From an uncultured Nitrospiraceae bacterium (lineage in GTDB: Bacteria > Nitrospirota > UBA9217), in contig CAYUSP010000003.1 of NCBI GenBank assembly GCA_964447405.1, positions 691,723 to 755,722 on the forward strand: a DNA stretch of 64,000 nt. The letters run 5' to 3'. This document shows positions 1-29,734 of the stretch, piece by piece. The translations under genes were made by a program, and so were the position numbers. How positions within the stretch are numbered: position 1 is the first letter of the stretch; every line of letters begins with the position of its first letter. The notes beneath the pieces are model-generated. The model did no database searches, was not told the DNA's origin, and saw nothing but the letters and a program-made list of their open reading frames with translations.

Positions 1-252
1 TCCGGCGACGATCGTTTTCCGTAAAAGACCGCTTCCTTCATGGAAGGATTGTAATAGGCGTTCGTGATGTCGTCGGACAGCTTCGCAAGCAGTGATCTCG
101 CCAGGTCGGTCCGGTCCCTCTTCAGTTCCGCCTGCTCCACATTCCTGCCCGCAGTCGAGAAACTCGTATAGATCACTGTGACAATGATGGCGAGGATCGC
201 AGTCGCCAGCAGTACTTCGAGCAACGTAAATCCCTTGAAACCGAGAGGCATG
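1..252 (-). CDS. T2SS minor pseudopilin, N-terminal part (gene continues beyond window start)
   Basis: Minus-strand ATG at 252 translates to MPLGFKGFTLLEVLLATAILAIIVTVIY...: prepilin-type N-terminal methylation motif (GFTLLE) followed by a hydrophobic helix. It sits at the distal end of the gsp operon. Confidence 0.55.
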
Positions 253-295
253 AAGCGTAAGGGGAAATCAGAGCACCTACAGGATTGATTACTGT

Positions 296-336
296 TCTCC
301 ACCCCTGGCCCCTGGCCCCTGACCCCTGACCCTTTG
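296..336. repeat. Tandem CCCCTGR heptamer block (cccctgg cccctgg cccctga cccctga ccc). G-rich on the transcribed (minus) strand.
   Basis: Seen directly. Intergenic, between the pseudopilin stop at 337 and the next pseudopilin start at 252. Confidence 0.8.
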
Positions 337-684
337 CTACTCATACCCCACCAGCTCTACCATTTCCTGCCGGTCCCCCTCTTTCCAGAGAACAGCAATG
401 CGCACCTCCATGATCTGGGTAAGGGGAGTGGGTGAAATCACCTTCTTCCATAGATACTCTTTGAACTCCACTTCGGGGAACTCCCCCTCATCCTCCGCAG
501 GAAGGCGCGGCCGCTTTACGATCGTGTCCGTCATCACCCGCTTCGCAAGAAGCGTGGCCGTGGTGATCCGCTCTGCTGCCAGGACGTTCTGCATGCTCCT
601 GTTTTTGAGCCCCAGCAGTGAGACCAGTACAAACGCCATGATCGAAACGGCCATCATCACTTCGAGAAGGGTGAAACCTTTCAT
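337..684 (-). CDS. T2SS minor pseudopilin (GspI/J-like)
   Basis: Internal Met gives MKGFTLLEVMMAVSIMAFVLVSLLGL..., a prepilin leader plus hydrophobic segment. The longer ORF track entry (to 771) runs through the intergenic repeat. Confidence 0.6.
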   Translation of the reverse strand: MKGFTLLEVMMAVSIMAFVLVSLLGLKNRSMQNVLAAERITTATLLAKRVMTDTIVKRPRLPAEDEGEFPEVEFKEYLWKKVISPTPLTQIMEVRIAVLWKEGDRQEMVELVGYE

Positions 685-727
685 TCCTTGAGGGAAGGAT
701 TGAAATCCGGCCCGGAGACTCGGTTCT

Positions 728-760
728 CCCCATGCCCCATGACCCCTGCCCCATGACCCT
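728..760. repeat. Degenerate CCCCATG/CCCCTGA repeat block
   Basis: ccccatgccccatgacccctgccccatgaccc, at a pseudopilin gene junction. Confidence 0.7.
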
Positions 761-767
761 TGATCCA

Positions 768-1304
768 TCATCGCTCCTCTATCCGTCCTTCGCGGAGCTC
801 CGTATCCCCTGTCAGCGGCCTCACGATCAGGGTGAAAATCTTTTCATCCGCGTCCTTCAGGTAAATAAAGGTCTTCTCCACCCAGCCGTCCGGTGTGAAC
901 TGGATATAATGTTCATCGGAGTGGCTGCCCGCCCGCACATCGCTGAAAGCGGTCTGGCCGGAAAGGATTCCTTCGCTCCCCATCTCGGAGTGATATTTTC
1001 TGAACTCCACAGCCTGCTCTCCAGCCAGGCTGAGAACCTCGGCCCAATAGTGTCCGTTGGGAATATCGAACCTTAGGCGGAACACCGCTTTTTTTGCCTG
1101 TGCCTCGTCCCGCAGAAACCGTATGGTGCCAGTCAAGTGGCGCGCGCTCTGCTTGAGGTTTGCTTCTCCCATGTCCCCGAGGCGGGAGATCACGAGCGAA
1201 AGCATCACTCCCAATACGACAATAACAACCGCAAGTTCTACGAGTGTGAATCCGCGGGGGCTGTTCCGTAACCCGTGATCCCTGACCCCTGACCCTTGAC
1301 CCAT
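768..1304 (-). CDS. T2SS minor pseudopilin (GspH-like)
   Basis: N-terminal ...RGFTLVELAVVIVVLGVMLSLVI prepilin motif. The true start is uncertain: the only in-frame ATG lies inside the G-rich repeat. Confidence 0.55.
   Translation of the reverse strand: MGQGSGVRDHGLRNSPRGFTLVELAVVIVVLGVMLSLVISRLGDMGEANLKQSARHLTGTIRFLRDEAQAKKAVFRLRFDIPNGHYWAEVLSLAGEQAVEFRKYHSEMGSEGILSGQTAFSDVRAGSHSDEHYIQFTPDGWVEKTFIYLKDADEKIFTLIVRPLTGDTELREGRIEER
1271..1304. repeat. CCCTGA-type repeat block (ccctgacccctgacccttgaccc)
   Basis: Seen directly at a pseudopilin gene junction. Confidence 0.7.
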
Positions 1305-1310
1305 GGCAAG

Positions 1311-1751
1311 CTACTCTATCTTCCAGCTCTGGATATCGGCATTCTTGCCCTCGCCGCCCGGCTCGTTGTCAGCGCCGTAGGAGATGATTTCATATTCTCT
1401 GCCTTCGCTTCCCGGCGATAGATACACGTAGTCCTTGTCCCACGGGTCCTTGGGAATGCGCGCCGGCTTCAGATAGCCGCCCTCGCGCCACTTCGGCGGG
1501 ACGCGGCCTGTTTCCGGCTTCCTGATCAGGGCGTCAAACCCCTGCTCCGTGGAAGGATACGATCCATTGTCGAGTTTGTAAGCATCCAACGCGCTTTCCA
1601 GCGACCGGATCTGCACTTTTGCCGTCCCGATCTTCGCCTTTTCCTCCTGCCCCAGAATGCGGGGAAGGACCAGTCCCGCAAGCAGACCGAGGATAATGAT
1701 CACCACCATGATCTCGATGAGGGTGAAACCCTTTTGATTTCTTGTCTTCAT
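1311..1751 (-). CDS. gspG: Type II secretion major pseudopilin GspG
   Basis: MKTRNQKGFTLIEIMVVIIILGLLAGLV...: canonical GspG N-terminus, ~146 aa. Directly downstream of gspF. Confidence 0.8.
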   Translation of the reverse strand: MKTRNQKGFTLIEIMVVIIILGLLAGLVLPRILGQEEKAKIGTAKVQIRSLESALDAYKLDNGSYPSTEQGFDALIRKPETGRVPPKWREGGYLKPARIPKDPWDKDYVYLSPGSEGREYEIISYGADNEPGGEGKNADIQSWKIE

Positions 1752-1789
1752 ACCGAGTCTCCTTTTACCACCTGACAATATCCGGTTTT

Positions 1790-1825
1790 CCTTGCCCCCT
1801 GACCCTTGCTCCTTGACCCTGATTT
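1790..1825. repeat. CCCTGA-type repeat block between gspF and gspG
   Basis: ccccctgacccttgctccttgaccctg. Confidence 0.6.
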
Positions 1826-1841
1826 CCAAACCCTGCCGTTA

Positions 1842-3062
1842 TCATCTCAGCCCCGAGCTCATCTCAAGCATAGGCAGCATGATGGCGATGACAATGAAAC
1901 CGATGATCAGGCCCATCACCAGGATGATCACCGGTTCCAGGAGCGCCAGAAACCCGGTGATGCGCGTCTCCACGGTGCGGTCGAACGAATCCGAGATCTT
2001 GAGTAGCATTTTTTCGAGTTCACCGCTCTTCTCGCCCACGGCAACCATCTGCACGACCACGGGCGGGAACAGGCCGCTCCTGCGCAGCGGGTCCGCGATG
2101 GGCTCGCCTTCACGTACGTTGTCGCGGGCCTTCTGGACCGCATTCGCCAGCACGGTATTCCCCACTACATTTCTGACAATATCAAGGGCAGTCAGCGTAG
2201 GAACTCCGCTCTGGAGCAGCGTGCCCAGTGTCCGCGTGAACCGGGATACCGTGATCATGCGGATAAGCCCGCCGAACACGGGAATACGCAGCAGCCAGGC
2301 GTCAACGGCCTCTCTTCCCGCTTGCGTGCCGATATATCTCCGGAAATAGAATATCCCCAGGCCAAGCGCCAGCAGGATCGCCCACCAGTAAGAGGAGAGC
2401 AGCCGCACGATCCCAAGCAGCATGAGCGTCACGAACGGAAGCTGCTGTTTCGTGTTCTCGAACATGCCCACGACGCGCGGCATTACAAAGCTGAACACGA
2501 AGAACAGCATGCCTGCGCCGATGATCGTCATGAACGCGGGATAGGCAAGGGCCGCTGTGATCCTGCCGCGGAACCGCACCTGCTCGTCCAGAAAATCCGC
2601 CAACCGGTCAAGGGTTATCTCAAGAGTCCCGCTCGCTTCACCAGCCGAGACCATGTTGACATAGAGCGGCGAAAAGACCTGCGGATTATCCTTGAGTGCA
2701 TCCGCAAGCGATGCGCCTTCGCGTACCCTGTCGCGCACCGCGGAGAGCGCGGCCTTCAGGGCCTCGGTCTCCTCCTGGTCCACCAGCACGGTCAGAGCAT
2801 CCATCAGGGGGAGCCCCGATGACAACAGTGTCGCAAGCTGCCGCGTGGAGGTGGCCAGGTCGCCGAGACGCACCTTTCGCCTGAACACGGTGGTTGATGC
2901 CCCCCTGCGGGCAGCCTGGGCAGCGTCCCCTTCGCGGATCTCAAGAACGATGATGCCGTCTTTCTTGAGCTTCGTCCGGACGGTCTTGAGGCTTTCCCCG
3001 TCCTGGGCACCGGATATCTTCTTTCCCTGGCTGGTAACGCCTTTGTATTCGTAGACCGGCAT
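1842..3062 (-). CDS. gspF: Type II secretion inner-membrane platform protein GspF
   Basis: 406 aa with GspF/PilC-like repeated T2SF domains and TM segments. Operon context. Confidence 0.85.
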   Translation of the reverse strand: MPVYEYKGVTSQGKKISGAQDGESLKTVRTKLKKDGIIVLEIREGDAAQAARRGASTTVFRRKVRLGDLATSTRQLATLLSSGLPLMDALTVLVDQEETEALKAALSAVRDRVREGASLADALKDNPQVFSPLYVNMVSAGEASGTLEITLDRLADFLDEQVRFRGRITAALAYPAFMTIIGAGMLFFVFSFVMPRVVGMFENTKQQLPFVTLMLLGIVRLLSSYWWAILLALGLGIFYFRRYIGTQAGREAVDAWLLRIPVFGGLIRMITVSRFTRTLGTLLQSGVPTLTALDIVRNVVGNTVLANAVQKARDNVREGEPIADPLRRSGLFPPVVVQMVAVGEKSGELEKMLLKISDSFDRTVETRITGFLALLEPVIILVMGLIIGFIVIAIMLPMLEMSSGLR

Positions 3063-3162
3063 GGTTTTAATTCAGTTGGGGGTCGCGAGTTCGTAGTTCG
3101 GAGATAAAGACCGAAACTGCGATTCTCACTTCCATCTCCGAACTCCAAACTCCGAACTTACC

Positions 3163-4848
3163 TCACGTTTCCTTCTGCGTCACCCTCACTACTTCGTCAA
3201 CTGACGTGATGCCGGCGAGGATCTTTTCTGCGCCGTCCTGGCGGAGCGAACGCATGCCTTTTTCCATAGCCAGGGCCTTGATCATGGAAGCATCCGAGTT
3301 CTTCATAATCATCTGGCGCATCTCGTCATCCACCGTCAGGAGCTCATAGATCGCGCTCCTGCCAAAATAGCCGGTGTGGAAGCAGGCTTCGCACCCTTTT
3401 GCCCGATACACGGTGATGCCCGCGGCTCCTGTCCTGATCTCGAGTTCCGCGATCTCGCCGGCGGTCATCTGGTATGGCTCACGGCACTCTTTGCACAGCA
3501 CGCGCACGAGCCTCTGCGCAAGGATCCCCATAACCGACGAGGAAATAAGAAACGGTTCGATCTTCATATCAATCAACCGGGTCACCGCACCGGCGGAATC
3601 ATTCGTATGCAGCGTGGAGAACACCAGGTGTCCGGTGAGCGCGGCCTGGATCGCAATCTCAGCGGTCTCGGAGTCCCGGATCTCGCCCACAAGGATCACG
3701 TCCGGATCCTGACGCAAAACCGAACGGAGCCCCGCGGCAAAGGTGAGATGGATCTTGGCGTTCACCTGGATCTGCCCGATGCCCTTGAGCTGGTACTCGA
3801 CCGGGTCTTCGATGGTGATGATGTTCTTGTCCGGAGAGTTGATCTTCGAGAGCGCCGCGTACAGCGTGGTAGTCTTGCCGCTGCCAGTCGGGCCGGTAAC
3901 GAGAACAATGCCGTGGGGTCGCTCGATCATCGCATTGAACCTGGTAAGGGTATCCCCGGTGAATCCGATCTGATCGAGAGGCAGCAGGGCGCTTTCGCGG
4001 TACAGGAGGCGGAGCACGAGCCGCTCGCCGAACGCGGTGGGAACAATCGAGACACGGATGTCCACATCCTTGCCACCGATCTTGATGCGCATGCCGCCGT
4101 CCTGCGGCAGCCGCCGTTCTGCGATGTTCAGATCGGCCATGATCTTGACGCGCGAAGCGATGCTGGCCTGAAACCGCTTCTGGATCGTGAGAATGTTGTA
4201 CAGGATGCCGTCTATGCGGAACCGCGCGATCATCTCTTTTTCGAAGGGCTCGATGTGAATGTCGCTCGCGCGCTCGCGGATGGCCTGGGACAGGAGCGAA
4301 TTCACCAGCCTGATGATCGGAGCGTCGTCGGTGGCCTCCAGCAGGTCCGCGGGCTCATCGAGCTCCACCGCGAGAAAGGACAGGTCATCCTCCTCCATTT
4401 CCTGGACCGTATCCTCGGCGCGGTTCATGTCCTCGCTGTGAAGGCGGTTGATGGTGTCCAGGATCAGTTCGGACGGGGCAAGCACCAGCGATATATCGGC
4501 GTTGAAAAGGGCCCGGAGATCATCAAGCGTGGCGAGGACAAGCGGTTCGGATGTGGCGGCAACGACCGAGCCGTTCTCCCTGCGGAGCGGGACGGCGATC
4601 GCTTTTTTTGCGTAGGTGATGGGAACCTTGAGGGCCAGCTCGCGGTCGATTTCCCCGAGCTCGCCCTGGAACGGAAGGCGGAGCTGGGCGCCGAGCGCCT
4701 TCAGCACATCGGCCTCCGTCACAAAGTTTAACCGGACCAGCAGCGTACCGATCCGTCCGCCGCGCTTTTTCTGGAGTTCGAGCGCCTTTTTCAGCCGCTC
4801 CGGCGAAAGCCCGGACTCAACAAGTATCTCGCCGAGCAGGCGTCTCAC
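3163..4848 (-). CDS. gspE: Type II secretion ATPase GspE
   Basis: Walker A GPTGSGKTTT, Asp box, His box and the tetracysteine CKEC...CEAC motif typical of GspE. Confidence 0.9.
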   Translation of the reverse strand: MRRLLGEILVESGLSPERLKKALELQKKRGGRIGTLLVRLNFVTEADVLKALGAQLRLPFQGELGEIDRELALKVPITYAKKAIAVPLRRENGSVVAATSEPLVLATLDDLRALFNADISLVLAPSELILDTINRLHSEDMNRAEDTVQEMEEDDLSFLAVELDEPADLLEATDDAPIIRLVNSLLSQAIRERASDIHIEPFEKEMIARFRIDGILYNILTIQKRFQASIASRVKIMADLNIAERRLPQDGGMRIKIGGKDVDIRVSIVPTAFGERLVLRLLYRESALLPLDQIGFTGDTLTRFNAMIERPHGIVLVTGPTGSGKTTTLYAALSKINSPDKNIITIEDPVEYQLKGIGQIQVNAKIHLTFAAGLRSVLRQDPDVILVGEIRDSETAEIAIQAALTGHLVFSTLHTNDSAGAVTRLIDMKIEPFLISSSVMGILAQRLVRVLCKECREPYQMTAGEIAELEIRTGAAGITVYRAKGCEACFHTGYFGRSAIYELLTVDDEMRQMIMKNSDASMIKALAMEKGMRSLRQDGAEKILAGITSVDEVVRVTQKET

Positions 4849-6710
4849 CGGGCGCCCTCGGCGGGTCGGCTCGACTCAGGAGTGACCGTCGTCGCGGCGG
4901 GTGCTGACTGCTGTTGGCCAGCAGCCGGCTCCTGCCCAGCCCCTGACTGTTCGCCGGTTGTAGGTTTTTTCTCGTGCGCGCCCGGGAGGCCCCGGTCCTT
5001 TTTGTCAATACGGTATTCCTTGCGGAACTCATCCAGGGATTCGTTCTTGTGCCTCGTAAGTTCGCCGGCCTCGGCGTCTCCCTTGATCACGTAGGGCGTA
5101 ATGAAAATCATGAGGTTCGTCTTCTCGATCTTGGTCGTCTTGTATTTAAAGAACCATCCCAGGATCGGGATATCGCCCAGCAGCGGCACCTTCACGGTTG
5201 ACGCTGTCGCATTGTCCCTGATCAGCCCGCCGATCACCATGGTTTCCTTGTCTTTCACTACGACGGTGGTGCTTGCCGAACGCTTGCTCGTACTCGGGCC
5301 CACCAGGTTCGGATTCAATCCGGCAGTCGCGATCACGTTGGATATCTCAAGGTTCAGCTCGAGCTTGACGTTGTCCTCCGAGGTGATCTGCGGCGTCAGT
5401 TCCATGGTCAGGCCGACGTCCTTTCGATCGATGGCGGTCAGGATGGAGCCGGCCGTTGCCGGAGTCTGGGTTTGACTGCCGATGAACGGCACATTCTCGC
5501 CGACCATGATCTTGGCCTTTTGATTGTCCGTGGTAAGGATGTTCGGCGTGGACAGCACATTCACGTCGCCGTCAGTCTGCACCGCGCGAAGGAGCGCGCC
5601 GATGTTCATGTACTCCACACCTTTAAAAGAGAAGGTACCCTTGACCGCTCCCACGGCCAGGCCATTGAAGCCCGCGAATGCGGCAGGTCCGCTGACCGTC
5701 GCGTTGGCGATGCCGCCGAAGTTCGTCCCGCCCACGGCATTCGTGCTGCTGTCGCTCAGTTGATTGACAGCGCGGAACTCGAATCCGAGTTCCCGCTGCT
5801 TTGCCAGACCCATCTCGATGATCGCTGCTTCGACATAGACCTGGCGGCGGCGAATATCAAGTTTCTGGATCACGTCCTTCATGATCTCGAAATCGCCTGG
5901 CGATGCGACAATAATCAGCGAGTTCGTTGTCTTGTCCGCAGTGATGGTGACCGCGCCTTCGAGGATCGTGGACGGTCCCGCGGGCTGCGCCGCTCCTCCC
6001 GCCGGCGGCACCGGCAGCCTGGAGACAAGCGCCTGCATCAGTTTAGCGATGTCCTCGGCGTTTGCGTTCCTCAAATAGTAGACGTTAATCTTGCCTTTCC
6101 CTTCGGGCGCCGCCACGTCCATGGCATGGATCAGGCTTTCGATCTTCCTGATGTTATGCACGGAGTCGGTAATGATGACGGAGTTCGTGGTGGGATAGGC
6201 GATCAGCGTGCCGTCTTTGGTAACGAGGGGGGAAATCGTTCGCACGATCTCCTGCGGATTGACGAAACTCATGCGGATGAGCTTGGTTACGTACCCCTCC
6301 CCGTTCATGCTGCCATCCTGCATCACCTTGAGCCCGCTCTGCCTGGCCGAGGCCGCGGGAATGATGCGGATCACCGCTCCGTCCTCAATGGCTGTAAACC
6401 CCTTGATTTCGAGCGCCGAAAGGAACACCTGGTATGCCTCGTCGGGTGAGATCTTCGTCGGCGTCATGAGCGTGATCTTGCCCACCACGCGTTCATCCAG
6501 GATGAAGTTCCTGCGCGTAAGCTCGCTCATCACTTTGATGAGGGCGTTGATGTCGATGTTGGTGAAGTTCAGGGTGATGTAATCCTCGCCGGATCTTGCC
6601 TTCTGAAGATCGGCCTGATCGGGCGGGGCAACGGGCTTCTTCTCTTCAGCGTTAGCCGCGGATATGCCCATGAGCCCCATGAGAAGCAGCAGGGCCGCTG
6701 TTCTTTTCAC
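4845..6710 (-). CDS. gspD: Type II secretion secretin GspD
   Basis: 621 aa. Signal peptide, N-domains, conserved secretin C-domain (VPLLGDIPILGWFF). Stop overlaps the gspE start. Confidence 0.85.
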   Translation of the reverse strand: MKRTAALLLLMGLMGISAANAEEKKPVAPPDQADLQKARSGEDYITLNFTNIDINALIKVMSELTRRNFILDERVVGKITLMTPTKISPDEAYQVFLSALEIKGFTAIEDGAVIRIIPAASARQSGLKVMQDGSMNGEGYVTKLIRMSFVNPQEIVRTISPLVTKDGTLIAYPTTNSVIITDSVHNIRKIESLIHAMDVAAPEGKGKINVYYLRNANAEDIAKLMQALVSRLPVPPAGGAAQPAGPSTILEGAVTITADKTTNSLIIVASPGDFEIMKDVIQKLDIRRRQVYVEAAIIEMGLAKQRELGFEFRAVNQLSDSSTNAVGGTNFGGIANATVSGPAAFAGFNGLAVGAVKGTFSFKGVEYMNIGALLRAVQTDGDVNVLSTPNILTTDNQKAKIMVGENVPFIGSQTQTPATAGSILTAIDRKDVGLTMELTPQITSEDNVKLELNLEISNVIATAGLNPNLVGPSTSKRSASTTVVVKDKETMVIGGLIRDNATASTVKVPLLGDIPILGWFFKYKTTKIEKTNLMIFITPYVIKGDAEAGELTRHKNESLDEFRKEYRIDKKDRGLPGAHEKKPTTGEQSGAGQEPAAGQQQSAPAATTVTPESSRPAEGAR

Positions 6711-6749
6711 TCGTCGCCTCCGTGATTTGAATTGTACAGGAAAATACGA

Positions 6750-6831
6750 ACCGGAGAATCGGGGAATGGGGGCCTCGGAAAGGTTCTCGGGCCAATATTC
6801 CGTAGCTCCCGTTCCCCGGTTCCCCGGTTTA
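6750..6831. repeat. Imperfect purine-rich inverted repeat (aaccggagaatcggggaatggggg ... cccgttccccggttccccggttt) between gspC and gspD
   Basis: Seen directly. The arms are reverse complements with a few mismatches. ~35 bp spacer. Confidence 0.55.
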
Positions 6832-6835
6832 TGTG

Positions 6836-7660
6836 TTAGCGTATCTCGTAGTTCAGCGTCTGGCGCTGACCGCCGCGGATGAGGTCAATGGAGATGTACC
6901 GCTCGTTCCTGAGTCCCTGGTAAAGCTGGAAGAACTTGGAGGGATCGTCAACATCCTGCGAATTGACCCGCTGGATCACATCATTGTTCTGGATCCCGAT
7001 CTTCTCATAGATGCTGCCCGGCACGATCTCGCTGATCTTGAACCCCACGGTCTTTCCCTGCTCCATATGGGGCAGCGCACGCGCCTGCGTCAGTATCTGG
7101 CTCATGTTTTCCGTGCTCGCGATCATTTCTTTCTGGTCCACCATCCATTTGCCATCGGAGAGCTTTTTTACACCGTTTACGCCCGGCTTTGGGATGGAGA
7201 CGATCTTGGTGTCGTCGATGATCTGGATGTCGACGGTCCCGCCATCCGCTTTCTGGAGCGTGACCTTGTCGCGGATAACCTTTATGATCTGCGAACCATC
7301 AGGCAGCTTCTGGCGCGTCCGGTAAAAAGCCTGGCCCGTGCTGTCCTCAAGCACTGCGCCGGAAAAATTCGCGCCCTCCACCGTCCCGATGAGCTTGTAG
7401 GTGGTGGCTTCGATTGCTGTCGCTCCCCCGGAAGGCCCTTTTCCATCACCGAAGATCCCGCGTTCAAGGATGGAGGAATAATCGGAGAGCTCGCGCTTCG
7501 GCTCGATCGCTGGCCGTTCACGGTCCAAGGGAGCCGCGTACTTCGGAGCAGCATCAAGGCTCCTGCCGATCATCGCATCCACCGTATCAGCAAGAAAATA
7601 AGCTGAAAACGTGAGAAGAGCAATGAGAACAAGCGTATACAGTGTTTTTTCTTCTTTCAC
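6836..7660 (-). CDS. gspC: Type II secretion protein GspC-like (N-terminal TM, C-terminal PDZ-like)
   Basis: First gene of the cluster, upstream of gspD. N-terminal TM helix. The C-terminal region resembles a PDZ domain. Confidence 0.5.
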   Translation of the reverse strand: MKEEKTLYTLVLIALLTFSAYFLADTVDAMIGRSLDAAPKYAAPLDRERPAIEPKRELSDYSSILERGIFGDGKGPSGGATAIEATTYKLIGTVEGANFSGAVLEDSTGQAFYRTRQKLPDGSQIIKVIRDKVTLQKADGGTVDIQIIDDTKIVSIPKPGVNGVKKLSDGKWMVDQKEMIASTENMSQILTQARALPHMEQGKTVGFKISEIVPGSIYEKIGIQNNDVIQRVNSQDVDDPSKFFQLYQGLRNERYISIDLIRGGQRQTLNYEIR

Positions 7661-7729
7661 GACAGAAATGCCCCCCTAATGCTTCTTACCTCGTCATAAA
7701 AAATTATACTCTCTGGCGGGTTTCTTGTC

Positions 7730-7743
7730 AATTGTTAACAATT
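7730..7743. promoter_or_regulatory. Perfect 14-bp palindrome AATTGTTAACAATT in the gspC upstream region (candidate operator)
   Basis: Seen directly, ~85 bp upstream of the gspC start on the coding strand. Confidence 0.35.
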
Positions 7744-7815
7744 TGAGAGTAAAAGGTTTTTCCCTGTCCTGGCCGCTTCTGCAATGCTTTCCGAACAGCC
7801 GTCCGGTTCAATCGA

Positions 7816-8499
7816 TCATGCAATGAAGAACCCCTGGTAAAACCGCTCTGCCCGCTCACGGTAGCCGGGAAATATCCGTTCCGAGTCAATGGCAACGTCG
7901 GAAACATCGATGCCCTTCTCGTTCTTCAGCCATTCCTGCACCATGGCAGGAGTGACCTCGATGTGGAATTGGAGCGCATACACCCTGTCACGAAACAGGA
8001 AAGCCTGGTTCTGATAGAGCTCCGAAGATGCGAGGCATACAGCTCCAGCAGGAAGATCGAACGTGTCGCCATGCCATTGGAAGACCTGGGCACGGTCCCG
8101 GCCTGGTATCGTGAGAGCGGACATACCGGGATCTTTCAATCCGTCGCGCGTCAGTTCAACTTCGGACCATCCAATCTCCTTGCGAGAGCCGGGATAGACA
8201 CGGCTGCCGAGCACATGTGCGATCATCTGCGCACCAAGGCAGATTCCGAGTACATGCTTGTCCATTTTTATGGCCCGATCAATCAGCAGTGCCTCGTGTA
8301 CGAGATGGGGATAGGTAAGCATTTCGTACACCGCCATGGGTCCGCCCATGACCAGAAAATGGGAAAATTGATCGGGATCGGGGACATCATCGCCCGCGCT
8401 GAGATCAACGACCGCAAAGGGTATCCCGCGCGCAAGCAAATGCTCCGCGATCGTACCCGGCCCTTCACTGAAGATGTTCTTGATGATGAGAACCCGCAT
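7816..8499 (-). CDS. Class I glutamine amidotransferase-like protein
   Basis: LGICLGAQMIAHVLG nucleophile-elbow Cys. GATase1 fold signature. Confidence 0.7.
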   Translation of the reverse strand: MRVLIIKNIFSEGPGTIAEHLLARGIPFAVVDLSAGDDVPDPDQFSHFLVMGGPMAVYEMLTYPHLVHEALLIDRAIKMDKHVLGICLGAQMIAHVLGSRVYPGSRKEIGWSEVELTRDGLKDPGMSALTIPGRDRAQVFQWHGDTFDLPAGAVCLASSELYQNQAFLFRDRVYALQFHIEVTPAMVQEWLKNEKGIDVSDVAIDSERIFPGYRERAERFYQGFFIA

Positions 8500-9962: not shown

Positions 9963-10097
9963 ACCATTTCACCGCAGAGGACGCAGAGGGGAAGCATGGC
10001 GAGGAAGGCAACGGCGGGCAAGGCATTAAGCTTTGTTTAAAAACCAGAAATAATTTTGAATTAAGATTTCCTTGGAGTTGATTTCCTCTGCTTCCTC
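9963..10097. repeat. Gene-less inverted-repeat pair ACCGCAGAGGACGCAGAGG / CCTCTGCTTCCTCTGCGGT (empty copy of the cassette seen at 12363-12843)
   Basis: 19-mer at 9963-9981 and its reverse complement (1 mismatch) at 10079-10097, enclosing ~97 bp with no ORF. Confidence 0.75.
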
Positions 10098-10114
10098 TGC
10101 GGTAACAATTATTT

Positions 10115-12334: not shown

Positions 12335-12362
12335 AACACAAACCTCAAAACCTTTTTTTACC

Positions 12363-12843
12363 GCAGAGGACGCAGAGGAAGTCAAACCCGCTGGCCTATA
12401 ATCCGTTGGCGACTCTCTTAATGCCATCTTTCAAATGAACAACATTGAAGTTTATTAATAGCCCAAGCTTTTTATTGCTTAATTTCAGGTATGAAAGAAT
12501 TTGTGCTTCATGAATCGGCAATATTTTCTCAACTGCCTTCAATTCAACGATAACACAATTGTCAAGCATAAGGTCTATTCTATATCCGGCATCGATCTTC
12601 AAGCCATCATACAGGATCGGCAAGGCCATTTGAGAAAGCACGGTTAATCCGAGCTTTCGTAGTTCATGCAGCAAACATGCTTCATACGCGCTTTCCAGCA
12701 AACCAGGACCCAAAGCTGAATGAACTTTCATTGCAGCTTCAATAATCTTACCACTAACCCCATTTATATCCATTTATTCCAGACCTCCTGTCTATCCTGC
12801 CAGTTTTTGACCTCCTCGCCTCTCACCCTCTGCGTCCTCTGCG
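12363..12843. mobile_element. Mini-cassette bounded by a perfect 19-bp terminal inverted repeat ACCGCAGAGGACGCAGAGG, carrying one GxxExxY gene
   Basis: IR at 12363-12381 and its exact reverse complement at 12825-12843. The same IR occurs as a gene-less pair at 9963-10097. Confidence 0.65.
12396..12773 (-). CDS. GxxExxY family protein (PD-(D/E)XK-like fold)
   Basis: 125 aa. ...CVIVELKAVEKILPIHEAQILSYLKLS... matches the GxxExxY signature (G..E..Y region near the C-terminus). Confidence 0.75.
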   Translation of the reverse strand: MDINGVSGKIIEAAMKVHSALGPGLLESAYEACLLHELRKLGLTVLSQMALPILYDGLKIDAGYRIDLMLDNCVIVELKAVEKILPIHEAQILSYLKLSNKKLGLLINFNVVHLKDGIKRVANGL

Positions 12844-12851
12844 GTGAAAGA

Positions 12852-20810: not shown

Positions 20811-20920
20811 GGACAGAAGTAAGAAGACAGACTGAACCAATATACCGCACGCTTGTATACCTTGTCTATTGTCTGACTTCTCTCTTCTGTCCTCTGTCTT
20901 CTGTCCTCTGTCTTCTGACC
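20811..20920. repeat. Gene-less inverted-repeat element of the GGACAGAAGTAAGAAG family
   Basis: Left arm ggacagaagtaagaag (identical 16-mer to 29286-29301). Right arm cttctctcttctgtcctctgtcttctgtcctctgtcttctg (imperfect reverse complement, internally tandem). Confidence 0.6.
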
Positions 20921-20926
20921 CTCACC

Positions 20927-22561
20927 ATGCCCCTTACCTTTATTGACATAGAACGGCAGAAGAGCTGGCGCATAGGAATCTTTTTCCTCGTTCTCCTCGC
21001 GTTGTACCTCGTGATAGCGGCTCTCTTTGTAACCGCCTTTTTCCCCATTCCCTGGCATGGCGCGCTGCAGTTCTGGTTGATTGTCGGACTGGCTGCGCTG
21101 TTCATTGCAGGGATTCACTTCTGGTTCTCCGCATATGACACGGTCAGGACGGTAATACAAGGCCTCGAAGGCCAGCCGCCCGATCCTCAGGACGACGTGC
21201 ATACGATGTTCCTGAACATCATACAGGAGATCCAGGTCGTGACCGGGAGCAAACGGAAGATTCAGTGCACCGTGATTCCCTCATTCTCCCTGAATGCGCT
21301 GGCGGTTGCGGATCTCAGGGGCGAGGCTGCGATAGGAATCACGGAAGGTCTGCTGTCGCGCCTTACCCGGCCCCAGCTCGAAGCGGTCATCGCGCATGAA
21401 GCGCACCACATCCTTTCAGGGGATTGCCTGGAAGCCACCGTAGCTGCAAGCCTGTTCGGCACGTATGTATCTGCCATTGAAAAAATGAGCGCGACGTCAC
21501 AGGGCCGGGCCTTTGCGTCGCCCACGCTCCTGCTGGCCTGGCTGCTGATGAAACTGAGCCAGCTCCTGAACATGTTCATTTCTCGCGAGCGCGAGTACCG
21601 GGCCGACGCCGCAGCTGTACGCATGACCAGAAACCCCATCGCGCTCGCAGAGACACTCTATATGCTGTCGCGAAGCTGGCGGGGCGCTGGTTTTATCGGC
21701 AGCGGATACGAAATGCTCTGTATCGTGAATCCCCGATCAGCGTTCATGGACGAAACCGAAGGATTCTGGGCCGACCTGCTGTCCACGCATCCTCCGCTCC
21801 GGAAAAGGATGGACATTCTGCTTTCCATGGCGCATGCGAACATCGCTGAATTGGATGCCCGTTCAGCGGGGGCAGCAGATCACAAGCCGACAAAGGTGGA
21901 ACTTCGATACTATGCCATGAATCCCCAGCAAAAGTGGCAGGGGCCGTTCACGCCGGCAGAACTCGGCGAACTGCTGTGGTTGTCGCCCCTTACCTGGGTC
22001 ACGCAGGGCAAGAATCATCCCGTGGACCGCGCTTCGAAAGAGCCTTCCCTCAACGCCATTTTCATGGCTAAACTTGCCTCGCAGGAGCGGCCTCTTTCGG
22101 ATTTTTCCTGCCCTGCCTGCAGCCAGCAGCTCGTTATAAGTTCTTATGAAGGCACTCAGATCTATCAATGCAGATTTTGTTCCGGCATTCTGGTGGATAT
22201 GATGAAAATACCCCGGATCATCGCTCGAACAAGCCGGGAGCGTCTGTGCTCGGAGAGGATCGTATCTCTTGCCAAGGCAGTCGCTTCGGCAAATCAAATG
22301 AAAGTTACGCTTCAGAAACACGCTGCGGGTGGGCATAAGGCGGTTGCGCTTCTGCCGTGCCCGAAATGCGGCAATCCCATGTTCAGGTGCTTTTACAGCC
22401 AGGCCCACCTGATTGAAATAGACCGCTGCAGTTTCTGCAGCCTCACATGGTTCGAGCAGGACGAGCTCGAAATGCTGCAATGCATGATAGAGCACAGGTT
22501 GATGCCGGATGTCACCGGGCAGGAACAGATTACTCTGCCAACTGCTGAAGCATGGATTTAA
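20927..22561 (+). CDS. M48 family (HtpX-like) zinc metallopeptidase with a C-terminal tandem zinc-ribbon extension
   Basis: TM helices. HEAHH zinc-binding motif. C-terminal CPACSQ...CRFCSG and CPKCGN...CSFCS pairs. Confidence 0.75.
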   Translation: MPLTFIDIERQKSWRIGIFFLVLLALYLVIAALFVTAFFPIPWHGALQFWLIVGLAALFIAGIHFWFSAYDTVRTVIQGLEGQPPDPQDDVHTMFLNIIQEIQVVTGSKRKIQCTVIPSFSLNALAVADLRGEAAIGITEGLLSRLTRPQLEAVIAHEAHHILSGDCLEATVAASLFGTYVSAIEKMSATSQGRAFASPTLLLAWLLMKLSQLLNMFISREREYRADAAAVRMTRNPIALAETLYMLSRSWRGAGFIGSGYEMLCIVNPRSAFMDETEGFWADLLSTHPPLRKRMDILLSMAHANIAELDARSAGAADHKPTKVELRYYAMNPQQKWQGPFTPAELGELLWLSPLTWVTQGKNHPVDRASKEPSLNAIFMAKLASQERPLSDFSCPACSQQLVISSYEGTQIYQCRFCSGILVDMMKIPRIIARTSRERLCSERIVSLAKAVASANQMKVTLQKHAAGGHKAVALLPCPKCGNPMFRCFYSQAHLIEIDRCSFCSLTWFEQDELEMLQCMIEHRLMPDVTGQEQITLPTAEAWI

Positions 22562-24806: not shown

Positions 24807-25433
24807 ATGTACATCGATCAACCGATACGACAGTTTATGGACAAACTGGCCAGCAAATCTCCCGAACCTGGAGGCGGCAGCGTAGCAGCGCTTACCGGAT
24901 CGCTCGGTGCGGCACTGGTAAGCATGGTCTCGAATCTCACCCTCGGTAAGGAAAAATACAAGGACGTTCAGCCTCAGATCGAACAGTTGCTCAAGGAATC
25001 GGAAAAACTGCGAACAGAAATGCAGGACCTCATCCAGAAGGACACCGAAGTATATGGCGCTCTTTCCGAAGTTTACAAGATGCCAAAGAATACTGATGCG
25101 GAAAAAGCTGCGCGCACTGCAAAGATGCAGGTGGCGTTGAAAAATGCCTGCCAGGTTCCCTTTGACATCGGGATGAAATCACTGGAAGTGGCGAAACTCG
25201 CCCGTCGCGCTGCCGATATCGGGAATGTTGGCGCGGTCAGCGACGCGGGCGTGGCCGTGCTGCTCGCCCAGGCCTGTGCGCAGAGTGCCGCGCTCAATGT
25301 CAAGATCAACGTGAACAGCATCAAGGATGATGCATACAACCAAGACACCTGGACACGCATGCAGGATGTGCTCGGCCAGGTTGCGGCTCTGGAAAAATCA
25401 GTGATGGAAACGACGTATAAGAAAATGGGCTAA
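24807..25433 (+). CDS. Methenyl-THF cyclohydrolase / formiminotransferase-cyclodeaminase C-domain (FtcD-like)
   Basis: PEPGGGSVAALTGSLGAALVSMV motif. RBS aggagg at 24794. Confidence 0.7.
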   Translation: MYIDQPIRQFMDKLASKSPEPGGGSVAALTGSLGAALVSMVSNLTLGKEKYKDVQPQIEQLLKESEKLRTEMQDLIQKDTEVYGALSEVYKMPKNTDAEKAARTAKMQVALKNACQVPFDIGMKSLEVAKLARRAADIGNVGAVSDAGVAVLLAQACAQSAALNVKINVNSIKDDAYNQDTWTRMQDVLGQVAALEKSVMETTYKKMG

Positions 25434-25570
25434 AATATTGGGTCATGTAGCATGGGTCAAGCAGCAAGGATCCAAGAGCGGGCGGTAACGATCTTGTTTG
25501 ATGGTTCTCCCCATGCTACTTGCTACAGTGCTTTTGCTACTTGACCCTCTTCGACGAAGGAGAAGAACAC

Positions 25571-28665: not shown

Positions 28666-29313
28666 TTGCCATCACAAATAACTCATGCTATAACGCTCGT
28701 CATGTCAACCTCTCCCTCCTTAGAAGAACAGATAACGATGGCGGGCCTCACATACGGACGCCGCCACGACATCGCATACCGCTCCGGCATGGTGCTCCAG
28801 GTATGCGGTGCTGCCTTGCTCGCTGTGCTGTATCCGCTCGACAGCCCGTTCTATACCATAGGCATCATGCTGTTCGAAGCCGGCGTACTGCTTTCTGCAA
28901 TCTATCTTCTCGTTTGGATGCGCCCGGTCAAGAAGATAATAGTCGGGTCGGTGATCGCAGGGCTCGTTCTTCAAGTAGTCGGTGCCTTCGCGGCCCCGGA
29001 ACAATATGCGGGTCTGGTTCTGCTCTCAGGAATCGGGCTCGTCTGCGCTGGAGCGGCTGGGATGGTCGGCAATGAGGCGTTTTGCTTTGGATACCGTGAA
29101 GGCTGGGTGCTTATGCTGGCTGGATTTCCCGTGATGGTCCTGGCAAATCTGCTGCTCAGAGAGAACCGCATTTTCAATTCGCTGGGTTTCTCCGTTATTT
29201 TTTTACTGCTGCTTTCACTTACAGGCAAGAAGCTAAGGCAGAAATTGCTTTCTTTACCCTCTACAAGCGTTTGCGGGGTGTCGGAGAGGACAGAAGTAAG
29301 AAGTAAGAAGTAA
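28666..29313 (+). CDS. Hypothetical polytopic membrane protein
   Basis: Several hydrophobic helices. No recognisable family. Start uncertain. Confidence 0.3.
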   Translation: MPSQITHAITLVMSTSPSLEEQITMAGLTYGRRHDIAYRSGMVLQVCGAALLAVLYPLDSPFYTIGIMLFEAGVLLSAIYLLVWMRPVKKIIVGSVIAGLVLQVVGAFAAPEQYAGLVLLSGIGLVCAGAAGMVGNEAFCFGYREGWVLMLAGFPVMVLANLLLRENRIFNSLGFSVIFLLLLSLTGKKLRQKLLSLPSTSVCGVSERTEVRSKK

Positions 29314-29722
29314 GAGAACTACCAAATATAATTCGTCCAACATGAAAAAACATAACTTCAGAAATCTAAAAATCTACCAACGAGCCATAGCATTCGCTGT
29401 GGATATTTACCAGATCAGCAGGAGTTTTCCGCAGGATGAAATTTATGGGCTGACAAGTCAGATACGACGGGCCGCAACTTCAATCCCCCTTAATATTGCC
29501 GAAGGCAGTGGCAGCACATCAGGAAAAGAGTTTAGGCGATTTCTTGAAATTGCTTTACGTTCTGATTATGAGGTATTGGCCTGTCTGGAAATATCATTAC
29601 GATTGAATTACTGCAATCATGCGGTTTTTGAAAAACTGACTCAGGAAGCAAACGAAATAGCATCCATGATAGCTGGATTCTCAAAAAGCCTATAATCTTA
29701 CTTCTTACGTCTTATCTCCTTT
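29286..29722. mobile_element. Mini-cassette bounded by GGACAGAAGTAAGAAG-family imperfect inverted repeats, carrying one four-helix-bundle gene
   Basis: Left ggacagaagtaagaagtaagaagtaagag (29286-29314). Right tcttacttcttacgtcttatctcc (29697-29720, imperfect reverse complement). Confidence 0.55.
29342..29695 (+). CDS. Four-helix-bundle protein (23S rRNA intervening-sequence protein / Avd-like family)
   Basis: 117 aa. IYQRAIAFAVDIYQISRSFPQDEIYGLTSQIRRAATSIPLNIAEGSG... is a hallmark of this family. Confidence 0.8.
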   Translation: MKKHNFRNLKIYQRAIAFAVDIYQISRSFPQDEIYGLTSQIRRAATSIPLNIAEGSGSTSGKEFRRFLEIALRSDYEVLACLEISLRLNYCNHAVFEKLTQEANEIASMIAGFSKSL

Positions 29723-29734
29723 TTCTTTCTTCTG

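Follow-up and report, generated by a model that had tools for sequence, protein, structure and literature searches.

The type II secretion system (T2SS) operon at the start of a 64,000-nt stretch of DNA from an uncultured Nitrospiraceae bacterium (contig CAYUSP010000003.1, positions 691,723 to 755,722; the whole stretch is called the window below, and coordinates are those of the window) carries a block of G-rich 7-nt repeats at each of four successive pseudopilin gene junctions. The question raised by this locus is whether the blocks act as G-quadruplex (G4) switches in intergenic RNA, as a preliminary description of the sequence had proposed, or have another origin. The arrays belong to a class of repeats that populates T2SS gene junctions across a clade of Nitrospirota. 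It is rather probable that the blocks are translated, fast-turnover heptamer repeats tolerated in the cleaved leader of the prepilins, and that their structure may limit the translation of minor pseudopilins.

Repeat blocks of the T2SS operon

Gene order was determined with Pfam and NCBIfam and placed the four blocks, as described earlier, at the gspF/gspG, gspG/gspH, gspH/gspI and gspI/gspJ junctions (F/G, G/H, H/I and I/J) of an operon on the minus strand:

1-7660, minus strand, gspC-D-E-F-G-H-I-J operon (Pfam, NCBIfam)
1311-1751, minus strand, gspG, major pseudopilin (ATG 1751, AAGGAG at 7-nt spacing; leader of 8 aa, MKTRNQKG)
768-1304, minus strand, GspH-like minor pseudopilin (ATG 1304-1302; G|FTLVE site; leader of 18 aa)
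337-771, minus strand, GspI-like minor pseudopilin (ATG 771-769; leader of about 31-32 aa)
1-344, minus strand, GspJ-like minor pseudopilin, partial and running off the window (ATG 344-342; leader of 38 aa to G|FTLLE)

GspC, the secretin GspD and the ATPase GspE were identified with these databases; GspF scored 468.9 bits to TIGR02120 and GspG 175.7 bits to TIGR01710. Three more prepilin-type proteins had GspH, GspI/XpsI and minor-pseudopilin models as their top matches; the GspH and GspI models were best or near-best for their proteins, but with scores under the model cut-offs. All four pseudopilins matched PF07963 and carry the prepilin motif G|F-T-L-x-E.

The four blocks themselves were confirmed by the period-7 calls of Tandem Repeats Finder and by our own period scan:

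301-332, minus strand, I/J array (Tandem Repeats Finder, 4.6 copies, 92% matches; 302-332 in the period scan)
728-759/768, minus strand, H/I array (Tandem Repeats Finder; 728-763 in the period scan)
1271-1302, minus strand, G/H array (Tandem Repeats Finder; 1266-1302 in the period scan)
1790-1820, minus strand, F/G array (Tandem Repeats Finder; sequence GGGTCAAGGAGCAAGGGTCAGGGGGCAAGG)

On the mRNA strand, which is the minus strand, the blocks read as GGGTCAGGGGTCAGGGGCCAGGGGCCAGGGG and similar sequences, with GGGTCAG, GGGCCAG, GGGTCAT and GGGGCAG as units in the window and 4-5 imperfect units per array according to Tandem Repeats Finder. The I/J array reads GGGTCAG GGGTCAG GGGCCAG GGGCCAG GGG, the H/I array GGGTCAT GGGGCAG GGGTCAT GGGGCAT GGGG, and the G/H array, which begins at the G of the gspH start codon, ATG-GGTCAAG GGTCAGG GGTCAGG GATCACG GGTTACG G. 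Head-to-tail 7-nt units in at least three copies, recurring at many loci, identify these blocks as heptanucleotide tandem repeats. The motif CCCCTGRCCC, with at most one mismatch, occurred 18 times in the whole window against 11.6 expected, and 11 of the 18 matches lay inside the four blocks. A scan of the whole window against Rfam gave no match at the gathering threshold. Since over 60 independent assemblies, one of them a complete chromosome, contain such arrays, an assembly artefact was ruled out.

Coding status of the blocks

The blocks had been described as intergenic and positioned directly upstream of start codons. This holds for the F/G block only, which is non-coding and lies in an untranslated spacer about 25 nt upstream of the gspG Shine-Dalgarno sequence; the G/H, H/I and I/J blocks lie in in-frame leaders.

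For GspH, ATG 1304 is the sole in-frame ATG, GTG or TTG between the upstream in-frame stop and the cleavage site, and the array, whose first base is the G of this start codon, encodes MGQGSGVRDHGLR / MGQGSGVRDHGLRNSPRG (MGQGSGVRDHG...). An identical 178-aa GspH protein (P0001) is present among public gene calls. The conserved starts of GspI and GspJ overlap the end of the preceding gene, and the frames that they open run through the arrays. The GspI ATG at 771, preceded by GAGGAG, overlaps the gspH stop TGA (770-768) as ATGA, and the H/I array is situated inside a long GspI-like leader (MMDQGSWGRGHGAWGE...). The GspJ ATG at 344 lies within the end of gspI, 2 nt before its stop codon (339-337); the I/J array is inside a long GspJ-like leader (MSSKGSGVRGQGPGV...), and the start context AGCTATGA... 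recurs in relatives, in frame with the cleavage site. A short basic leader of about 5-10 aa is thus found in GspG but not in GspH, GspI or GspJ.

These starts bear directly on the model of the preliminary description, in which non-coding intercistronic RNA G4 switches upstream of short-leader starts were selected to tune pseudopilin translation. The F/G block does lie in an untranslated spacer, and short in-frame ATGs are available for both GspI and GspJ. GspH, however, has no start downstream of its array, and neither of the short starts has a usable Shine-Dalgarno sequence: at the GspI start (MKG), AAGGA directly abuts the ATG, and the GspJ start at ATG 251 (MPLGFKG) has none.

Evidence of translation from related loci

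The relatives examined were about 65 loci of uncultured Nitrospirota obtained from GspF and GspG searches, with identities to the window of 67-83% for GspF and 72-89% for GspG. From these, 122 distinct junctions between two pseudopilin genes were taken in which the upstream stop and the G-1 codon are 45 nt or more apart.

At 110 of the 122 junctions, the frame was open up to the cleavage site from an in-frame start that lay between −25 and +20 nt relative to the upstream stop. Spacers were free of stops in frame 0 in 112 cases, compared with 43 and 49 in the other two frames, and the ATG nearest the upstream stop was in frame at 85 of 108 junctions. A short alternative start was absent in 86 of the 122, and leader lengths in the relatives ranged from 16 to 69 aa. 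Such frame and stop-codon statistics indicate translated spacers and speak against non-coding switches. The preliminary description had itself named, as a finding that would count against it, that the repeats are simply Gly/Gln/Ser-coding leader sequence; the single start of GspH, the conserved starts of GspI and GspJ, and the 110 open spacers indicate that this is the case for three of the four blocks.

The composition of the units leads to the same conclusion. A stop trinucleotide in the unit would end translation, because a heptamer array cycles through all three phases; a single leader array out of 84 had one in its sense unit, as against 10 of 49 arrays elsewhere and 32% of random heptamers of the same composition. 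The gspH, gspI and gspJ arrays are accordingly predicted to be translated in an expanded leader and removed from the mature protein by prepilin peptidase.

The leaders called for 117 GspH homologues in public data had a median length of 18 aa and ranged from 5 to 61 aa. Leaders of the (GSGVRGQ)n type, into which (GGGTCAG)n translates, numbered 32, those of a CGGA type 44, and 15 were short. A function of the Gly/Gln/Ser leader at the protein level was rejected, as orthologous leaders are unrelated (GQGSGVR as against LRIADCG or NPQSAIR types).

G-quadruplex potential

A canonical G4 motif was defined as at least four runs of G3+ with loops of N1-7 on a single strand. The textbook motifs claimed for the blocks are present on the mRNA strand at G/H, H/I and I/J; F/G, with just three G3+ runs, is not canonical. 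Both strands of the 64 kb hold four canonical motifs in all, three of which are these blocks. This total is near the shuffle mean of 2.6, and the unusual feature is the placement at three successive junctions. G4Hunter, which had been suggested as a check, was run in 25-nt windows and gave −2.44 for H/I and −2.20 for I/J, ranking first and second in the window, and −1.60 for both G/H and F/G. In the ViennaRNA model that allows G4s, the minimum-free-energy fold holds a G4 in the G/H, H/I and I/J blocks but not in F/G.

Two other structural identities were tried for the four blocks and rejected. Ordinary hairpins at these sites are no more stable than shuffles (z from −1.0 to +1.5), yet they are valid for the gspC/gspD (C/D) and gspE/gspF (E/F) junctions and for many relatives. 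Repetitive extragenic palindromes (REP) and REPINs do not fit either: the same z values show that the blocks are not palindromic, and their units vary between sites; for the RAYT transposase that usually accompanies such elements, the analysis covered the window.

A comparison of the G-tracts with orthologous operons had been suggested as a check, and it did not show them to be conserved. G-tract arrays were found at only 10 of 51 H, 6 of 40 I and 4 of 33 J junctions, that is, at 12-20%, and canonical G4 motifs at 7/51, 4/40 and 2/33, respectively; most junctions bear other heptamers, which often form hairpins. The locus in the window is the only one with a G4 motif at all three pseudopilin junctions (H, I and J). 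The conserved G-tracts of a regulatory RNA G4 (rG4) are lacking here, because G-tract arrays sit at a minority of orthologous junctions. The G4 potential is a consequence of the unit and of the coding constraint acting on it, and not of a conserved design. The three canonical motifs and the top G4Hunter scores on the mRNA strand are what non-coding G4 switches would lead one to expect, but given the starts, the reading frames and the orthologues without G-tracts, we consider that model very improbable.

Heptamer arrays across the clade

The F/G, G/H, H/I, I/J and often also the E/F junctions of relatives bear heptamer arrays of differing units. G-rich GGGTCAG-like units are a minority, the commonest being TGCGGAT, TTCGGAT, ATGCGGA and GTGCGGA, and a reverse-complement array (ATCCGCA and similar) follows 20-40 nt downstream, reaching within 2-3 codons of the G|F site. 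The clade loci (520 kb) held 139 period-7 arrays, compared with 7, 3, 2 and 1 arrays of periods 6, 8, 9 and 10; in 755 kb of other loci, there were 18 period-7 arrays. In 100 of the 139 cases, a prepilin cleavage codon follows within 150 nt. Nitrospirota that are more distantly related, at about 50% identity in GspF, lacked arrays.

Whether an array has a complementary partner depends on its unit. Units of the TGCGGAT/ATCCGCA type are stop-free on both strands and occur as two-arm hairpins. The GGGTCAG unit cannot have a complementary arm in a translated leader, because its complement CTGACCC contains TGA; related GTCAGRA arrays at non-coding E/F junctions do possess one. Eight leader arrays had a stop in the reverse complement of the unit, and seven of these were G-rich units with TCA, which becomes TGA in the complement (AGGGGTC, AAGGGTC, ATGGGTC and AGGCGTC).

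Arm-2 units fit the complement of arm 1 better than permuted partners do (0 of 2000 permutations reached the observed value), and the G-rich arm was 5' on the sense strand in 32 of 33 array pairs. Compared with the exact complement, 24 of the 33 pairs showed one mismatch per heptamer (e.g., ATTTCGG with CCGCAAT), because of which the helices are interrupted every 7 nt, and tandem arms permit register-shifted pairings. Strong hairpins, in contrast to G4 motifs, were frequent, with 36-50 of the 122 junctions folding with z below −3 or −2. CsrA-type GGA sites or tandem Shine-Dalgarno-like motifs were considered as a feature shared by the units and rejected on inspection: TGCGGAT, TTCGGAG and GTCAGGA fit, but GGGTCAG, GACAGAA and GTAAGAA do not.

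The arrays turn over rapidly. Loci L009 and L010 are 94-97% identical from gspG to gspJ, but their G/H and I/J leader interiors are non-homologous, TTCGGAG-type as against GGGTCAA-type, between perfectly conserved flanks. A single unit also tends to fill all junctions of an operon, as with GGGTCAG in the window and ATTGCGG in L015. Short leaders were present in some relatives at one H (L019), four I and three J junctions, the last including L011 (MKHNEHG). The arrays are judged dispensable because some relatives, as well as 15 of the 117 GspH homologues, have short leaders and distant Nitrospirota have no arrays; they are dispensable, unstable and tolerated.

Cassette-like replacement of leaders raises the possibility of a DNA-level G4 on the non-template strand that promotes recombination or gene conversion among pseudopilin 5' ends, for which the pilE-associated G4 of Neisseria gonorrhoeae would be an analogue. 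The wholesale exchange between L009 and L010 would agree with this, as would the presence of one unit at all four junctions of the operon while the orthologous junctions of close relatives carry other units. However, most of the replaced arrays are unable to form a G4, silent donor copies were not seen in the window, and the leaders are cleaved and unexposed, so that variation brings no evident benefit. Very little probability is assigned to this mechanism.

Copy number differences could also make the arrays contingency loci, in which slipped-strand change of one 7-nt unit shifts the leader frame and toggles the minor pseudopilins, and with them the T2SS. Every single-unit change of 7 nt in an open reading frame (ORF) shifts the frame, copy number does vary among relatives (the GspH homologue P0031 has an expanded 44-aa G-type leader), and the phase variation of Haemophilus influenzae hmw is driven by heptamer repeats (PMC12721329). 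Short and usually imperfect arrays of 3-6 units, on the other hand, predict low slippage rates, and about 90% of the assembled junctions are in frame. Such toggling is given very little probability. Exact-protein contig look-ups for GspG and GspH (P0001) gave no strain variant on record for comparing copy numbers, and a metagenome scan with GspG gave no relative above 89% identity, hence no near-identical strain.

Repeats of other kinds were also seen in these leaders and spacers. GC-rich REP-like hairpins (CCTCTCCCC-N-GGGGAGAGG) are nested in frame beside heptamer arrays in leaders of 39-54 aa, and a near-perfect inverted repeat of about 22 bp (GTAACCACGGATGAACACGGTT ... AACCGTGTTCATCCGTGGTTAC) replaces the heptamer array just upstream of the gspG Shine-Dalgarno sequence in many relatives. 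Heptamer arrays further occur at T2SS junctions of other lineages (Bradymonadaceae, unclassified metagenome-assembled genomes and one distant Nitrospirota), examples being a 91-nt (GACTGNC)n before gspF and (GCCAGAA)n or (AATGCGG)n ending at most 12 nt before a prepilin cleavage codon. Their positions are as follows:

GC-rich REP-like hairpins: L008, about 6500-6644; L028, about 7630-7918; L065, about 8215-8491; L114
Inverted repeat of about 22 bp in the gspF/gspG spacer: L006, L014, L020, L028, L065, L103, L108, L110, L112
Heptamer arrays of other lineages: L035, 5907-5997; L049, 7773-8232; L039, 7697-7729; L120, L124, L129, L132, L133, L148

Possible effect on translation

According to the reading favored here, a cleaved leader would accept almost any in-frame, stop-free insertion, which would make the junctions a safe harbor for arrays that grow, degrade and give way to others far more quickly than the neighboring genes evolve. 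Translation would filter the units, as no stop trinucleotide is allowed in any phase. Units that are stop-free on both strands could be joined by an inverted array and form a hairpin; GGGTCAG would pass the filter while its complement would not, leaving only a single G-rich arm in leaders.

Since the array starts +3 to +12 nt after a coupled start codon, a stable RNA structure would be placed there, a G4 in this operon and a hairpin in most relatives. When folded, it would cover the 30S landing site and disfavor independent initiation, whereas a ribosome that has just finished the preceding cistron would unfold the structure and re-initiate. GspH, GspI and GspJ would be made mainly in this way, and coupling would hold the minor pseudopilins below GspG. 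The earlier suggestion that structure tunes translational coupling or stoichiometry may thus survive in a modified form, as a stable RNA structure at a coupled junction; conservation of the G-tracts does not. Within the favored reading, a share of roughly one third is given to a selected regulatory role of the structure rather than mere tolerance.

Several points weigh against this reading. The four blocks themselves fold as ordinary hairpins no better than shuffles, and the folding of RNA G4s inside bacterial cells is disputed. The use of the long starts by GspI and GspJ in the window is suggested by homology and frame statistics, and short in-frame ATGs exist. The sense fold was more stable than the antisense fold at 85 junctions versus 37 (p = 1e-8), but this had to be discounted as a sign of selection at the RNA level, as G+U-rich strands fold better regardless. 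Finally, the high occupancy (122 of 139 junctions expanded), the recurrence in other lineages and the fixed arm orientation exceed simple tolerance, and the arrays may be positively selected.

This last point leads to an alternative in which the arrays are a positively selected structural module, hairpin or G4, that enforces strict coupling or processing by RNase III or exonucleases, with a sequence free to drift or swap. Near-universal occupancy of the E/F, F/G, G/H, H/I and I/J junctions in the clade despite sequence turnover is in keeping with it, as are the complementarity of arms within junctions above that of permuted partners, the 5' position of the G-rich arm, the proportion of strongly folding junctions and the similar arrays of unrelated lineages that precede prepilin cleavage codons by 12 nt. 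A precedent exists in the heptamer hairpin of the H. influenzae hmw 5' untranslated region (5'-UTR), which is processed by RNase III (PMC12721329). However, operons remain intact with short leaders at some junctions in some relatives, arrays of these classes are found at unrelated sites between genes as well, and the REP-like hairpins nested in leaders resemble passive accumulation. Most two-arm hairpins, moreover, carry the mismatch in every heptamer, and a cut by RNase III within the leader would part the start codon from its gene. Selection for such a module is possible but rather doubtful.

A more elaborate version would see the leaders of T2SS minor pseudopilins as holding interchangeable modules that act as coupling valves and set a G > H > I > J stoichiometry, with cassettes copied between junctions. 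The module would be a hairpin if unit and complement are both stop-free and a G4 otherwise, and only ribosomes finishing the upstream cistron could open it. Copying would proceed by a mechanism perhaps related to the hairpin-bounded elements with four-helix-bundle and GxxExxY genes in the same genome (see below), and the modules would be found in the Nitrospirota clade and possibly further lineages. This version is considered unlikely.

Comparison with known repeats and leaders

Cyanobacterial short tandemly repeated repetitive (STRR) heptamers form a related short tandem repeat class. TAACTGA heptamer direct repeats have been described in Beggiatoaceae, Cyanobacteria and Bacteroidetes (MacGregor 2015, PMC4679880), with the remark that coding potential dictates where the units are tolerated (PMC4679880). 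Similarly to both, the arrays described here are short 7-nt arrays of 2-6 copies, found at numerous gene junctions in the orientation of the gene that follows and often ending a few nt from a start codon without a Shine-Dalgarno sequence; post-transcriptional action has been proposed for such repeats. In contrast to TAACTGA, which has stops in all three frames and is barred from ORFs, the present arrays use many different stop-free units, which are translated in frame in prepilin leaders, an array is commonly accompanied by an inverted array, and the host phylum is Nitrospirota. The unit sequences also differ from the described CCCCAGT, TTGGTCA, CAACAGT and TAACTGA. The intergenic location stated for STRR/TAACTGA-type repeats does not apply here, because three of the four blocks are in translated leaders.

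The (ATCTTTC)n repeat in the hmw1A 5'-UTR of H. influenzae forms a hairpin processed by RNase III (PMC12721329). It is likewise a transcribed heptamer repeat, which pairs with a G-rich arm in a long hairpin and serves the post-transcriptional control of a surface or secretion-related protein. The hmw1A tract has at least 11 repeats, is untranslated, and its phase variation and RNase III dependence have been demonstrated. The arrays described here have 3-6 units, lie mostly in coding leaders, consist of repeats in both arms in relatives, and are known from sequence; the four blocks of the window form no hairpin.

Bacterial rG4 regulators have been reported from rG4-seq in Escherichia coli and Pseudomonas aeruginosa (PMC6974567) and for PE/PPE transcripts of Mycobacterium tuberculosis (PMC10801317), with translational inhibition as the reported effect (PMC6974567, PMC10801317). 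Like the present blocks, they have G3+ tracts with short loops on the sense strand, located at or close to the beginning of an ORF. They differ in that the G-tracts here are a by-product of a tandem heptamer, are unconserved at orthologous positions, and come from sequence data.

Two further comparisons concern structure and leader length. REP/REPIN elements and intercistronic stem-loops set differential expression within operons and, like the present arrays, are structured repeats at polycistronic gene junctions that are also dispersed elsewhere in the genome. REPs, however, are near-identical imperfect palindromes in many copies per genome, whereas the arms here are tandem repeats, many of them translated, with units that vary by site (GGGTCAG, TTCGGAG, GGGGAACC, CGCAGAGGA, GACAGAA and GTAAGAA). 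Type IVb pilins have long leaders of 15-30 aa that end in Gly and are cut by prepilin peptidase, which resembles the present case. Those leaders are conserved protein sequence, whereas the leaders described here, of 16-69 aa on T2SS minor pseudopilins, are repeat-encoded and unconserved between orthologues.

Nothing relevant was found in a search of the literature for heptanucleotide repeats in pseudopilin leaders. Compared with the known systems, the distinguishing features are the in-frame site in prepilin leaders, the many stop-free units, the array and inverted-array design and the cassette-like turnover. Repeats with a unit length that is not a multiple of three are expected outside coding sequence, whereas the 7-nt arrays here are systematically in frame; they can be tolerated within genes, since what they encode is removed with the leader. 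The genetic code thus visibly filters the permitted repeat units and RNA structures, either a hairpin or a lone G-rich arm, and a textbook G4 motif can emerge as a side effect of repeat dynamics and coding constraints. For annotation, this means that spacers full of repeats that precede prepilin genes and are taken for "intergenic" may be coding. The operon also offers a testable system for the role of STRR/TAACTGA-type heptamers and for the low stoichiometry of minor pseudopilins in a single operon.

Other hairpins and repeats in the window

The remaining features of the operon, and further period-7 arrays detected by Tandem Repeats Finder and the period scan, are:

7703-7731, minus strand, consensus sigma-70 promoter (TTGACA-17-TATAAT, 12/12) upstream of gspC
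6749-6829, minus strand, gspC/gspD intercistronic hairpin with period-8 arms (GGGGAACC GGGGAAC ...; Tandem Repeats Finder 6811-6829)
3087-3152, minus strand, gspE/gspF intercistronic hairpin with heptamer-array arms (GAGTTTG GAGTTCG GAGAT ... ATCTCCGAACTACGAACTC; Tandem Repeats Finder array 3136-3158)
3132-3158, 20872-20917 and 29289-29315, further period-7 arrays

No terminator-like site was found at the operon junctions, and gspC to gspJ therefore reads as one transcription unit. In addition, gspG may have an internal promoter of its own, for which a weaker match (9/12) at 1894-1867, within the 3' end of gspF, is a candidate. The inverted repeat between gspC and gspD (earlier placed at 6750-6831), which had been called weaker, actually forms the most stable hairpin in the operon (−52.6 kcal/mol, z = −3.3). 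The gspE/gspF hairpin, which had been missed, folds at −39.2 kcal/mol (z = −1.9).

Outside the operon, two intergenic hairpins were observed. The first, between LemA/MamQ-like and HtpX-like genes at 20811-20917, has two heptamer arms (GGACAGAAGTAAGAAGACAGA ... (TCTGTCY)n, 6.6 copies); it ends, with the array at 20872-20917, 10 nt before an ATG at 20927 without a Shine-Dalgarno sequence, a layout as in TAACTGA repeats. At 25429-25543, an imperfect two-arm hairpin (GGGTCATGTAGCATGGGTCAAGCAGCA ... TGCTACTTGCTAC...TTGACCC) is located between fchA and folD, immediately ahead of the folD Shine-Dalgarno sequence.

Two genes are bracketed by inverted repeats. The GxxExxY gene (TIGR04256, 12396-12773, minus strand) is enclosed at 12356-12849 by 23-nt inverted arms of period 9, ACCGCAGAGGACGCAGAGG and CCTCTGCGTCCTCTGCGGT, and an ORF-less copy of these arms (9971-9989 and 10085-10103) forms a two-arm element at 9971-10103. 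The four-helix-bundle gene (TIGR02436, 29342-29695, plus strand) is bracketed by the inverted arrays (GAAGTAA)n at 29289-29315 and (TCTTACT)n at 29696-29733. Hairpin-bounded intervening sequences of 23S rRNA carry this four-helix-bundle family, and the layout at 29289-29733 recalls them, although it is found here between protein-coding genes.

On inspection, the purine-rich arm of every element outside the operon is the 5' arm relative to the sense direction of its neighboring genes, on both DNA strands, and this orientation points to a property at the transcript level.

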